This document shows positions 11,133-13,505 of a stretch of 64,000 bases of DNA, piece by piece (the stretch's first letter is position 1; the number at the start of each line of letters is the position of its first letter). Both the position numbers and the translations under genes were made by a program. Source of the stretch: Enterobacter phage vB_Ecl_SABI; the sequence record PQ864023.1; one strand, 5' to 3'. Below the pieces are notes generated by a model. That model was not told where the DNA came from and ran no database searches. It saw only the letters and a program-made list of their open reading frames with translations.

Positions 11133-11819
11133 TTACGCGAACAGGTTGATCGCGTCGTCGTCTTCCTTCGGCTTAGCAAAGCCTTCTTCAGTTTCGACTA
11201 CTGGCTTGGTTTCAGCCGGAGTATCTGCAAACAGGTTTTCACCGTCATCAGCCGGGAACGGATTAGCCGTTGGCTCTGGTTCAGGATCTACGCTGCTTGC
11301 TGCGGCTGGCTCTGAATCGACGAACAGGTTTGGTTCTTCTGCTGCTGCTCCAGCAACTTCAGTCGGAGCTTCAACCGCTTCTGCTTTATCTGCCGCCGTT
11401 TCAGGTTCGGCTGCCAGGTTTTGATCGGCTTGCGTTTCTTCGGCTTCAGCGCCGACTTCGTTCGGGGCTTCTGCTTCGGTTTGCTTAGCCGTTTCAGGCT
11501 GTTGCTCAGCTTCTGCTGCTTGTTTAGCTGCTGCTTCATCGGCTTCGATCTCCGCACGGGTACGACGTTTACGGCGCTTACCACTTTTAGCTGGTTTACC
11601 AGCATCCTGAGCTACCTGCTCAGTGGTATCGTTATCATCTACGATATGATCGCCTTCTTCAAAGAGATCATCCGGCAGAGCTTCGTTAACACCCAATACA
11701 GCGGTAACGTCACCATTGATGAAGCCCAGGGCAACATCAGTTGGTTGTACACCGGTGAGCGAACCCAGATGTGCAACAACTGCATTCAGGATTTCTTCAC
11801 GGTTCAAATAGATCAGCAT
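11133..11819 (-). CDS. acidic protein with structured N-terminal ~90 aa and Ala/Glu/Pro-rich disordered tail carrying three NLF motifs (EPNLFVD, GENLFAD, C-terminal DDDAINLFA)
   Basis: ORF with RBS AAGGAA. Low-complexity acidic tail. The NLF motif matches the extreme C-terminus of the adjacent SSB (…GQDNLFM). Confidence 0.6.
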   Translation of the reverse strand: MLIYLNREEILNAVVAHLGSLTGVQPTDVALGFINGDVTAVLGVNEALPDDLFEEGDHIVDDNDTTEQVAQDAGKPAKSGKRRKRRTRAEIEADEAAAKQAAEAEQQPETAKQTEAEAPNEVGAEAEETQADQNLAAEPETAADKAEAVEAPTEVAGAAAEEPNLFVDSEPAAASSVDPEPEPTANPFPADDGENLFADTPAETKPVVETEEGFAKPKEDDDAINLFA

Positions 11820-11824
11820 TTGCT

Positions 11825-12427
11825 TTATTCCTTTTTGGCTAACATAGCCATTGTTTTGAATGTGTCAGTTTCCATTGCTGCGTAGATCGCTGCAATGGCA
11901 TCTGCCATATGCTCGGCAGTTCCCTCTACCACAGAGGTAACGCCTTGTACGGTCTTCATAGGCCAGGGCGCTTCAGGATGCTTAGCCATTGCCCAGGCTA
12001 TTGCCTGAGCTTTGGTTGCCTCTTTCTTACCAGTGATAACCTTTCTGGTTTCAATAGCATTAACCTGGATGAGTGGTACACGCATATTGCAAACCATACC
12101 GAGTATGCCGATACACACACCATAGGATGCCATAGCTCTCGCTGACTGGCTTCCGTGGGGGATTTCTGCGGCTATTACATCGGACTGCCTTATTGCATCA
12201 ATGAAGCCCTTAGAAAGCTGTTTAGAGCGTTCTATGTCCATTGAGTTTTGGCGAGTTTGTTTATCCTTGTTAAGGACAGGCTTAATCACGTCCAAACCAG
12301 TGATGGTTAGTTTGGACGTAACCGGGTCGTATACACCCTGGGCTAATCCCCAGTTACTAAACGAGGGATCTGCGCCGAGGATACGTAACCCTTTAGGCAT
12401 CGGCTTCACCGTCAACCGCTTGCTCAA
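11825..12427 (-). CDS. RuvC-like Holliday junction resolvase
   Basis: N-terminal ILGADPSFSNWGLA matches the RuvC-family catalytic motif (ILGIDPG…G). 200 aa, in the replication/recombination block. Confidence 0.65.
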   Translation of the reverse strand: MSKRLTVKPMPKGLRILGADPSFSNWGLAQGVYDPVTSKLTITGLDVIKPVLNKDKQTRQNSMDIERSKQLSKGFIDAIRQSDVIAAEIPHGSQSARAMASYGVCIGILGMVCNMRVPLIQVNAIETRKVITGKKEATKAQAIAWAMAKHPEAPWPMKTVQGVTSVVEGTAEHMADAIAAIYAAMETDTFKTMAMLAKKE

Positions 12428-12677
12428 CTTCCTGCTCTACGAACTGGAATGGCAAGTTCTTGAAGATTTCACCCGCAACCTGAACTCCGGCAATGAACGC
12501 TTCACGTTCATTTGGATTCAGTACCTTTTCTTTGCCACGGATGATCGCTTTGATGCGAACATGAGATGGCGGGTTACTGGCTAAAGCAACCTGCTTTTGA
12601 CCATCGGTGTGCCAGTCAACCATAAGTTGAGCGAACTGATCCAGGTTCTGTACTGGCTGAATGTTTTGCTGAGACAT
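12393..12677 (-). CDS. hypothetical protein (ORF track 12393..12710; start moved to MSQQNIQ with RBS GAGG)
   Basis: ORF immediately downstream of the SSB terminator. The upstream extension would run into the terminator hairpin. Confidence 0.4.
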   Translation of the reverse strand: MSQQNIQPVQNLDQFAQLMVDWHTDGQKQVALASNPPSHVRIKAIIRGKEKVLNPNEREAFIAGVQVAGEIFKNLPFQFVEQEVEQAVDGEADA

Positions 12678-12687
12678 AGATACCTCT

Positions 12688-12722
12688 GGTTTAAAGATAA
12701 GAAAGCCCACCGAAGTGGGCTT
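12688..12722 (-). terminator. rho-independent terminator after SSB gene
   Basis: Minus-strand RNA: AAGCCCAC-UUCG-GUGGGCUU followed by a U-rich tract (UCUUAUCUUU). Confidence 0.7.
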
Positions 12723-12737
12723 AGGTCAACCTGATAC

Positions 12738-13505
12738 TTACATAAACAGGTTGTCTTGACCAGCCGTAGTACCAGCAGGTTCAGCACCAACGCCACCTGC
12801 GAATGCACCACCCGGCGCACCAGCGTTACCAGCCTGAGCGACTTCTTTAAAGCGATCGTCTGGTTTGTTTTCCCAGACAGACAGCCAGTTTTTGGCGTAT
12901 TCAGCTTCGGCTTTTTTGCCAATGATTTCGCCTACGGTCATACTGTCACGCTCACGCATGAACTTAACGATTTCGTTGGTAGTACGTTTTTCGTTGATCG
13001 GATCGTACTTACCAGTCGATTCGTTCTTTTTGGTTTTGTTTTCGATACGCTCAACAACAGCCGCCTTGACGGTTTTCTTCAACAGCGGCATTAGCATATC
13101 GACATCGGTTGGCACTTCGCGTTTCTGATCGTAGTTATACAGGTTCAGAGTACGCTTTTCAGTAGCCGCCTGAAGCTCGATCAGAGACTTACCGGAGGTC
13201 AGCTTACACAGTGCATCGACAGTCTGGAAGCCCGGCAGATACTTCAGTTCGCCAGTCTGCTTGTCTTTGTACTTAATGGATCCTTCGCGGTTAGTAACGT
13301 AGATCGTGAAGCGATGTTTGGAACCGTCTTTGGTTTCCAGTTCCAGGTTAACAGCACGCGCACCGGAGGCAGCTTTGCTGAAATAGGCGTGGTTTACGGT
13401 GAAGTCGTAAATGTTGGAAGCCAGGGCTTTAAAGCCACCGCCACCAACTACGTCTTTTTCTACTGCGTCTTGTGCATTGTACTCATCAGCGTTTAAGAAA
13501 CTCAT
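12738..13505 (-). CDS. ssb: single-stranded DNA-binding protein (N4 gp45-like SSB)
   Basis: 255 aa with a Gly/Ala-rich flexible C-terminal region ending in a short hydrophobic tail (DNLFM). Sits beside the resolvase and primase as in N4-like replication modules. Size close to N4 SSB. Confidence 0.55.
   Translation of the reverse strand: MSFLNADEYNAQDAVEKDVVGGGGFKALASNIYDFTVNHAYFSKAASGARAVNLELETKDGSKHRFTIYVTNREGSIKYKDKQTGELKYLPGFQTVDALCKLTSGKSLIELQAATEKRTLNLYNYDQKREVPTDVDMLMPLLKKTVKAAVVERIENKTKKNESTGKYDPINEKRTTNEIVKFMRERDSMTVGEIIGKKAEAEYAKNWLSVWENKPDDRFKEVAQAGNAGAPGGAFAGGVGAEPAGTTAGQDNLFM

Follow-up and report, generated by a model that had tools for sequence, protein, structure and literature searches.

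The tails of two bacteriophage T7 proteins, the SSB (single-stranded DNA-binding protein) gp2.5 and the helicase-primase gp4, each finish in an acidic segment whose last residue is Phe, and both bind at identical sites of the T7 DNA polymerase/thioredoxin. Bacteriophage N4 is a classic model of an SSB that doubles as an activator of late transcription. In phage HK620, the Sak4 protein depends on the last six residues of its cognate SSB, with the tip NDYPPF (PMC5928155), and the tails of PrgE of pCF10 (PMC11137577) and P12 of PRD1 (PMC11886824) bind neighbouring protomers. Here we analyse a 64,000-nucleotide (nt) stretch of DNA from Enterobacter phage vB_Ecl_SABI (sequence record PQ864023.1; hereafter the window, by which the whole stretch is meant), in which an N4 gp45-type SSB and a 228-amino-acid (aa) acidic protein of the N4 gp47 family carry the same Phe-bearing motif.

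An initial annotation of the window had pointed to the similar endings of these two proteins and to two further internal NLF copies in the acidic one, and all of these sequence statements hold, with their coordinates confirmed. We find that the triplets are copies of the tip motif of the SSB, set in a disordered protein, that they are kept in orthologues and that they change along with the tip of the SSB, an argument for a partner in common. In the reading that we favour and consider fairly probable, the NLF copies form a docking motif of the type x-[L/M/I/P]-F for one shared, co-evolving receptor, with the acidic protein serving as a multivalent adaptor.

The tail motif in the two proteins and across the family

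The SSB was identified by its match to PHROG 743 ('single strand DNA binding protein'; E 1.7e-69, aa 8-254); a tblastn search with it matched 437 phage records, and every listed match whose record was opened belonged to the Schitoviridae. Its AlphaFold2 (AF2) model, with a mean predicted local distance difference test score (pLDDT) of 80.8, comprises a disordered N-terminus (aa 1-24), a beta-rich core of high confidence (approximately aa 25-222, pLDDT >90) and a disordered C-terminal tail, and its best fold matches in the PDB are the OB-fold proteins PrgE, which ranks first, and bacterial SSBs. The chain ends in AGTTAGQDNLFM (...GQDNLFM). In 46 diverse SSBs, F254 stands among just 10 columns without variation and L253 has a conservation of 90% or more, and a dipeptide of the form [LMIPV]F lies within the last 9 aa of all 120 SSB homologues taken as cluster representatives, the flavours being SLF (73), DLF (19), NLF (14), NPF (3) and a few others. 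In N4, gp45 ends in KSLFGKK, and the tip motif is the only conserved feature of its tail.

The motif had at first been likened to the acidic C-terminal tail (SSB-Ct) of E. coli SSB, of the DDDIPF type, a comparison that the family does not bear out. Phe is never the last residue, being followed by 1-5 further residues in all 22 SSBs read from loci; the tail in the window (AGAPGGAFAGGVGAEPAGTTAGQDNLFM) contains one Asp and one Glu among 28 residues, with no acidic run before the tip and no terminal Pro-Phe-COOH; and Lys or Arg flank the tip in most members of the family. The conservation of the internal copies in the acidic protein further implies that a free C-terminus is not required.

A second hydrophobic element is conserved in the disordered N-terminus of gp45-type SSBs (aa 1-24 in the window, 13434-13505; P0026-P0145). 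In most members its sequence is MS(x)[LIMV]FGNL; members with an NPF or DPF tip at the C-terminus have MSNPFANL or MTNPFGNM instead. In the window and Cbunavirus clades it is MSFLN or MSFLD, mostly together with NLF or DLF tips, respectively, and here it resembles the tip motif in reverse order.

The 228-aa protein matches PHROG 27468, a family of unknown function (E 1.1e-26), and is the orthologue of N4 gp47. A hidden Markov model of the N-terminal region, built from at most the first 110 aa of 23 homologues and aa 1-80 of N4 gp47, with N4 gp47 itself lying inside the training set, matches the gp47-like open reading frames (ORFs) of Enquatrovirinae loci L025-L031 outside that set (E 1e-4 to 2e-3), and the N-terminal domain (N-domain) can be aligned across 16 genera. 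AF2 modelling with a 24-sequence alignment predicts folded structure for aa 1-45 and a helix at aa 88-105, with the rest of the protein disordered. A Foldseek search of the N-domain against the PDB and BFVD returned nothing significant, the matches being weak, partial and ubiquitin-like (E ~1), and the protein had no match in Pfam, NCBIfam or a PDB sequence-profile search; a profile search with the 65-aa N-domain alone, a query too short for the size of the database, found 2 proteins. The basic patch that follows (GKRRKRRTR in the window) contributes the invariant residues K81, R83, R85, T87, E90, I91, A93 and D94 (KRRKRRT.EI.AD) to the 24-sequence alignment, and its counterpart in α-proteobacterial phages is a canonical AT-hook (RRGRPR, GGRPRK); the patch is probably a DNA anchor. 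Past aa 55 the 173 residues include 38 Ala, 29 Glu, 16 Asp and 15 Pro, which bears out the Ala/Glu/Pro-rich, low-complexity setting described for the motif copies.

In the alignment of 24 homologues, which share 36-77% identity, the invariant columns outside the N-domain comprise the basic patch, F166, N186-P187-F188, L196-F197, G213-F214-x-K216-P217 and L226-F227. Such conserved islands inside a divergent disordered region are the signature of short linear motifs. The original count of three NLF copies stands, and to it are added the motif-like segments ANPFP, PDDLFEE, which may be another motif copy or a part of the N-domain, and GFAKP. With regard to the last of these, GF[AVS]KP is kept throughout the multi-motif clade and N4-like members have KP immediately before SLF; GFxKP and the tip may form a bipartite site.

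The 83 ORFs of the window (20,372 aa) contain NLF six times: three copies lie in the 228-aa protein, one at the C-terminus of the SSB and two elsewhere, that is, just two in the remaining 19,889 aa. At this background rate the Poisson probability of at least three NLF in 228 aa is 2e-6, and shuffles of the disordered region that kept its composition gave two or more NLF in 0 of 200,000 trials. The region holds only four Leu and five Phe, three of each within NLF. A chance origin of the copies is excluded. Just three ORFs of the window have [NDST][LMIP]F among their last few residues, namely the SSB, the 228-aa protein and the virion RNA polymerase (vRNAP).

Several further candidates were set aside. 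The vRNAP was rejected as a third carrier, as its relatives end in KLILGSI or in unrelated sequence, out of step with the SSB flavour. Its C-terminus in the window (10847-10928, ending in GFGDPFASGVLQLPGAVTQPLPIKLMSNMF) is motif-like (GDPFASG...SNMF), with the terminal NMF limited to the window clade, and several clades share G[ND]PF[AS]SG as a conserved structural segment. The segment RGPLDLF of the gp44-like protein (aa 214-222) was rejected as a linear-motif copy: it belongs to a family-wide RxPxxx[FW] element near the C-terminus, in a segment that is probably structured, and this element does not co-vary with the tip flavour (PIDLF and PEDLF occur in NPF-type phages). At the DNA level, the word AACCTGTTY is observed 7 times against 1.2 expected, with four of the seven sites being NLF codons; a DNA repeat was rejected as a coding effect, because relatives have D/S-L/P/I-F at those places and need different DNA words.

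The motif is conserved among orthologues. Of 48 representatives of the multi-motif gp47-like clade, 47 carry 2-8 copies and one carries none; the motif lies inside the last 8 residues in 45, and 226 of the 295 Phe residues in their disordered regions are preceded by L, M, I or P. In more distant genera, free-standing gp47-like proteins span 129-175 aa, and those fused to RusA, like those of Burkholderia phage, reach up to 312 aa; the copies number one or two. The motif is single-copy in N4 itself, and the three copies of the window are a clade-specific expansion. In the Efbeekayvirus-like clade the predominant flavour is NPF/DPF, and the flanks, basic in most of the family, are acidic or hydrophobic in the window clade.

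When the SSB and the gp47-like protein were taken from the same genome, for approximately 20 phages, their tips were found to change together (Table 1). When the pairs of 16 phages were permuted, the score was 159±17, against 244 for the true pairing (p at most 1e-4, a value that is not corrected for phylogeny). As the flavours of both proteins shift in step by lineage, both would dock into the same, co-evolving receptor pocket. Furthermore, N4 (basic, KSLFGKK) and EK8 (acidic, QNDLFL) both infect E. coli and differ in flavour, which indicates that flavour tracks phage lineage rather than host. This is as expected of a co-evolving receptor and favours one encoded by the phage.

Table 1. SSB tips and motif copies of gp47-like proteins, paired by phage or group
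Phage or group	C-terminal end of SSB	Motif copies of gp47-like protein
Window clade	QDNLFM	PNLF, ENLF and, at the end, INLFA
Cbunavirus	Q[SN]DLFL	3-4 copies of DLF, with LDLF[SD] at the end
MIF8	DNPFL	SPFA, NPFA, DPFA
HS106	DDPFTM	APFD, VDPFA and, at the end, DDPFANFD
Enquatrovirinae	GKSLFGKK	KPSLFAGLKR at the end
PA26	ASLFS	GSLFS at the end
S6	KSMFG	KSIFG at the end
L014	KSIFGKKKD	KSIFGRVTPN at the end
Vibrio D501	KSLFKK	KLLFPKKK at the end
Burkholderia HN02	PSLFKKS	VSLFAKNK and, at the end, PSLFAGLNKNAG
Rhodovirinae	SSLFDD	GNLFGD and, at the end, SSIFDVD
RHEph16	PSLFGNKK	KKSIFANT at the end

Candidate receptors and competing explanations

The motif is the conserved tip of a disordered C-terminal tail in the gp45-type SSBs of N4-like phages, and gp47-like proteins comprise a folded N-domain of ~45 aa, a basic patch and a long acidic disordered region with one to eight motif copies, of which one nearly always lies at the C-terminus. 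Under the docking-motif reading, the acidic protein would present handles like those of the SSB on another platform, which would be duplex or branched DNA or else a fused or adjacent Holliday-junction resolvase, and a factor recruited by the SSB on single-stranded DNA (ssDNA) would also be brought, with avidity, to recombination or replication intermediates. That the protein is an adaptor rather than an inhibitor is something we infer: of the decoy and scaffold roles suggested initially, the evidence leans towards a scaffold or adaptor, and a decoy is probably wrong, given the RusA fusions described below, the conservation of the basic patch (an AT-hook in some lineages) and the constant position of the gene behind that of the resolvase.

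As candidate receptors we rank phage-encoded proteins first (the SSB core, the Sak4-like gp44 or another replisome protein) and the β′ subunit of host RNA polymerase (RNAP) second. Binding to the SSB core would give filament decoration; this candidate is suggested by PrgE and PRD1 P12, which oligomerise via a terminal tail, and by the related hydrophobic element at the N-terminus of the SSB. For the Sak4-like gp44 the precedent is HK620 Sak4 with its need for the last six SSB residues.

A number of points weigh against this reading. Docking to a common receptor is something that we infer from co-variation, for which only about six independent concordant flavour changes could be counted, and some pairs match poorly past the LF core, such as those of nACB1 (SGLFG with TKLFM) and OLIVR1, in line with a possibly permissive pocket. 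That the basic patch binds DNA is a prediction, and the N-domain is without a recognisable fold. Moreover, the sole experimentally documented partner of the gp45 C-terminus is host RNAP β′, in N4, and a role in transcription thus fits at least as well as one in replication or recombination.

The last point leads to the explanation that competes best with the adaptor, namely that the motif is the peptide with which N4SSB contacts the C-terminal region of β′ for activation, and that the acidic protein is a decoy or regulator of RNAP, which would titrate out β′ and so delay or restrict late transcription, or else serve as a DNA-tethered acidic co-activator. We regard this as rather unlikely. The link to N4 drawn in the initial annotation is real: N4 gp45 ends in KSLFGKK, with the motif as the sole conserved feature of its tail, and its C-terminus is reported to be essential for the activation of late transcription, through contact with RNAP β′ (PMC4496689); the gp47 of the N4 species ends in PSLFAGLKR. 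The LF core is also retained in phages of α-, β- and γ-proteobacteria, as a conserved host target would predict. The β′ subunit is conserved across these three classes. However, phages of the same host differ both in flavour and in the charge of the flanks (KSLFGKK in N4, QNDLFL in EK8), a joint shift of both ligands is left unexplained by an invariant host pocket, and the fusion of the module to the RusA resolvase is hard to square with a decoy of RNAP.

Rather unlikely as well, to a degree similar to the RNAP decoy, is a bolder reading in which gp47-family proteins might be hitherto unrecognised hubs of a replication factory, anchored to DNA by the AT-hook or basic patch or fused to a resolvase, with an acidic disordered arm that cross-links SSB-coated ssDNA, recombination intermediates and the receptor of the tip; if so, the 3-8 reiterated copies would give avidity or condensate formation. 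Should that receptor include RNAP β′, the protein would amount to a phage 'acidic activation domain' that ties late transcription physically to replicating and recombining DNA.

A further explanation is that the copies are binding motifs for the β-sliding clamp (QL[SD]LF-like), through which host DnaN would be drawn to the acidic protein and to DNA coated with SSB, in the manner of Mu MuC/Mor and many polymerases. The SSB tips QDNLF, QSDLF and QNDLF fit the Qx[DE][LM]F of Mor/MuC and resemble the QLNLF of UmuC, the C-termini of the acidic proteins ([AV][IL][ND]LF) correspond to positions 2-5 of QLDLF/QLNLF, and clamp-binding motifs occupy disordered termini, where binding is aided by acidic or carboxylate flanks. 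At positions 4 (Leu/Met) and 5 (Phe/Leu) the picture is mixed, the clamp consensus being kept in the window and broken by Pro in Efbeekayvirus-type phages. Nevertheless, Gln at position 1 is confined to SSB tips from the window/Cbunavirus clade: no copy in the 228-aa protein or in other gp47-like proteins has it, nor do the 73 SSB tips, out of 120, that are of the KSLFGKK type; the SSB tips have a polar residue at position 2; Pro takes the place of the required Leu or Met in Efbeekayvirus-type tips; and phages of one host, E. coli, differ in flavour although a host's clamp pocket is conserved. We therefore consider clamp binding very improbable.

Finally, that the copies are a functionless by-product of low complexity, codon bias or recent tandem duplication is in keeping with the low-complexity region and with the DNA word AACCTGTTY common to all four NLF sites, but is already effectively refuted by conservation, as the invariant columns are the motif residues while their surroundings diverge, the motif survives at 30-40% identity among relatives and also in phages that infect other classes of bacteria, shuffling does not reproduce the copies, and the shared word fits a coding-level origin, the D/S-L/P/I-F of relatives having to use other words.

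Through the shared tip motif, its co-variation and the resolvase fusions, an orphan ORF becomes a testable part of the coupling of replication, recombination and transcription across a phage family. The motif copies offer defined peptides and point mutations for testing, and the natural series of 1 to 8 copies is suited to the study of valency. More generally, the two proteins offer a case of short-linear-motif logic in phage proteins, with conserved islands in disorder, multivalency and co-variation of ligands.

Genomic setting and gene order

The window belongs to an N4-like podovirus of the Schitoviridae. Megablast of the window against the annotated phage collection gave a sole match, Erwinia phage MIF8, over 10% of the query at 79.6% identity, and the phage is thus new to that collection at the DNA level; IMG/VR holds near-identical contigs with an SSB identity of 97-98%. 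The vRNAP gene converges on a minus-strand block which, from lowest to highest coordinate, encodes a 60-aa membrane protein, the 228-aa acidic protein, a RuvC-like resolvase, a Gam-like protein, the SSB, an HNH protein and a Sak4-like protein, and which is transcribed from the Sak4/gp44 gene down to the membrane-protein gene (Table 2). The SSB gene lies downstream of gp44, within the block that ends at the convergent vRNAP gene, an order kept in every related locus read. The genes of the SSB and of the 228-aa protein, described at first as neighbours, are near to each other but not directly adjacent, since the RuvC-like resolvase and the small Gam-like gene intervene. The likely start of the resolvase is the ATG giving MPKGLRILGADPSF.

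Table 2. Coordinates of the genes and protein features discussed in the text (positions in the window, except for the RusA fusions, which are given by locus)
Feature	Position	Strand	Remarks
vRNAP gene	57-10928	plus	3,623 aa; converges on minus-strand block
N4 gp47-family acidic protein gene	11133..11819	minus	228 aa; PHROG 27468
Folded N-terminal domain, aa 1-45	11685..11819	minus	short strand, helix 7-22, hairpin 29-42; AF2 pLDDT ~80
P49-D-D-L-F53 (PDDLFEE, aa 49-55)	11661..11675	minus	P[DEQ][DG]xF[DE] element past N-domain; P49 and F53 at least 90% conserved in 24 sequences
Basic patch and helix, aa 80-105, GKRRKRRTRAEIEADEAAAKQAAEAE	11505..11582	minus	AF2 helix 88-105
Acidic Ala/Glu/Pro-rich disordered region bearing the motif copies	11136..11504	minus	AF2 pLDDT mostly <50
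Motif copy 1, N164-L165-F166 (EEPNLFVD), within AEEPNLFVDSEP	11322..11330	minus	F166 invariant in 24 homologues; flanks vary
Pro variant, N186-P187-F188 (ANPFP)	11256..11264	minus	all three residues invariant in 24 homologues
Motif copy 2, N195-L196-F197 (GENLFAD), within DDGENLFADTPA	11229..11237	minus	L196 and F197 invariant
G213-F214-A-K216-P217	11169..11183	minus	GFxKP, 8-10 residues before C-terminal motif; G213, F214, K216 and P217 invariant
Motif copy 3, N225-L226-F227, then Ala and stop (KEDDDAINLFA)	11139..11147	minus	L226 and F227 invariant
RuvC-like Holliday-junction resolvase gene (N4 gp46-like)	11825..12400	minus	PHROG 159, E 3.7e-39; directly upstream of gp47-like gene
gp45-type SSB gene	12738..13505	minus	255 aa; PHROG 743
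Disordered Gly/Ala-rich C-terminal linker and tip, SSB aa 226-255	12741..12830	minus	AF2 pLDDT <50
SSB tip N252-L253-F254, then Met and stop	12744..12752	minus	conserved columns
gp44-like Sak4/AAA_24 ATPase gene	14029..14772	minus	Pfam AAA_24, E 1.4e-13; PHROG 124 'Sak4-like ssDNA annealing protein', E 1.1e-46
RusA-gp47 fusions	L038 4783-5715; L047 3786-4724; L048 3813-4679; L049 3679-4461

At every locus read, the gp47-like gene stands directly behind a resolvase gene (RuvC-like gp46 or RusA-like) and before the convergent vRNAP gene, unless the two are fused. It is the last gene but one, followed by the small membrane-protein gene, in the window and in most of the relatives read, and the last in EcP1; in Pseudomonas and Acinetobacter phages several more genes follow. 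Fusions in which the gp47 module is joined to the C-terminus of a RusA resolvase were found in three genera of the Rhodovirinae and in Rhizobium phage RHEph16 (Demetervirinae), and in the fusions the whole module is present, with its N-domain, the AT-hook RGRP, the acidic stretch of disorder and the SIF/NLF tips. The fusion provides a Rosetta-stone link of the gp47 module to junction resolution and points to an adaptor at DNA or junctions rather than to a free decoy.

The gp47 of the N4 reference (NC_008720, L007 9679-10125) is annotated with a frameshifted end (KKYRKKRLKNQYKPNLLCLQV). Its A-run is 1 nt shorter (GAAAAG) than that of PMBT57, a phage of the same species (GAAAAAG; L050 201-644), whose gp47 ends in EVQEEEAKEPVQAKPSLFAGLKR, as do other Enquatrovirinae likewise. 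The corrected end of N4 gp47, EPVQAKPSLFAGLKR, echoes the KSLFGKK of gp45, and the short A-run of the reference is either a sequencing error or a mutation of the laboratory strain. In EK8 (PQ805430; L003 3501-4262) the gp47-like gene, of 253 aa, is unannotated and the resolvase is labelled 'Mu Gam-like end protection'.

As for the remaining genes of the block, the small protein between the SSB and the resolvase (12393-12677) matches PHROG 15896 'Mu Gam-like end protection' (E 5e-28), and its orthologues carry uneven labels: 'terminase small subunit' in Kc283, 'host nuclease inhibitor' in Horatius, or simply hypothetical. An HNH/AP2 homing-endonuclease gene (13521-14057) sits between the gp44-like and gp45-like genes, overlapping the 3' end of gp44 by 29 nt; it is found in Cbunavirus, MIF8 and Acinetobacter nACB1 and is absent from N4, PA26, S6 and EcP1. 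A strong hairpin with a T-run lies just past the SSB stop codon (12703-12722, minus strand; AAGCCCACTTCGGTGGGCTT TCTTATCTTT), and a bidirectional terminator-like hairpin with a 12-bp stem (10931-10958) separates the convergent vRNAP and 60-aa membrane-protein genes. The 'gp48-like' protein of PA26 (147 aa, L037 5086-5529) may, by its size and position alone, match Ab09 gp59, an Acb4-Sequestin anti-CBASS/anti-Thoeris fusion (bioRxiv 10.64898/2026.06.04.730250); this would place an immune-evasion gene inside the replication/recombination block of the Migulavirinae, for which the window has no counterpart.

Relation to known tail-motif systems

The activation determinant of N4SSB (gp45) belongs to a direct homologue, in which the motif lies within the C-terminal region that is reported to be essential for late transcription (PMC4496689); the flanks are acidic or hydrophobic in the window clade, whereas they are basic in N4. 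The tails that contact the β-clamp in clamp-coupled late transcription (T4 gp33/gp55/gp43, Mu MuC; bioRxiv 2025.01.04.631326) similarly combine an xLF peptide with disordered termini and link replication and transcription factors, but the clamp consensus (Qφx[LM][FL], PMC11139829) is matched only in part, with Gln missing and a Pro variant present. With the E. coli SSB-Ct (DDDIPF) hub and the SSB-Sak4 pair of HK620 the tails share a disordered linker and a short hydrophobic tip, and in HK620, too, a Sak4-like annealase is encoded beside the SSB; in contrast, the tip in the family of the window is [ND]LF[ML] or KSLFGKK, without an acidic run or terminal Pro-Phe-COOH, and a second protein bears it.

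Among solved structures the SSB core comes closest to that of PrgE, which is, like P12, a monomeric OB-fold SSB that forms filaments and which likewise has disordered termini with conserved hydrophobic elements at both ends, although for gp45-type SSBs the binding of tail to core, as in PrgE and P12, is a proposal only. We know of no second tail-carrying protein for PrgE or P12. In the searchable literature, which is incomplete for the N4SSB work of the 1990s, we found no description of a motif shared by gp45 and gp47, of its conservation across the family or of its reiteration, and a literature search with the literal motif strings returned no relevant paper; the 'gp47' of a preprint on Migulavirinae and Thoeris follows another numbering, is a tail-fibre chaperone and is irrelevant here.

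The closest concept to the motif shared by gp45 and gp47 is that of T7, where two phage proteins of DNA metabolism, one of them the SSB, also have in common a disordered, Phe-bearing C-terminal peptide. In contrast to T7, the Phe is here non-terminal, internal copies occur (up to 8), the flanks are basic in most of the family, and the second carrier is mostly disordered and without an enzymatic domain. The tip shared by the SSB and gp47 is a new form of a known principle, that of one tail motif on two proteins.

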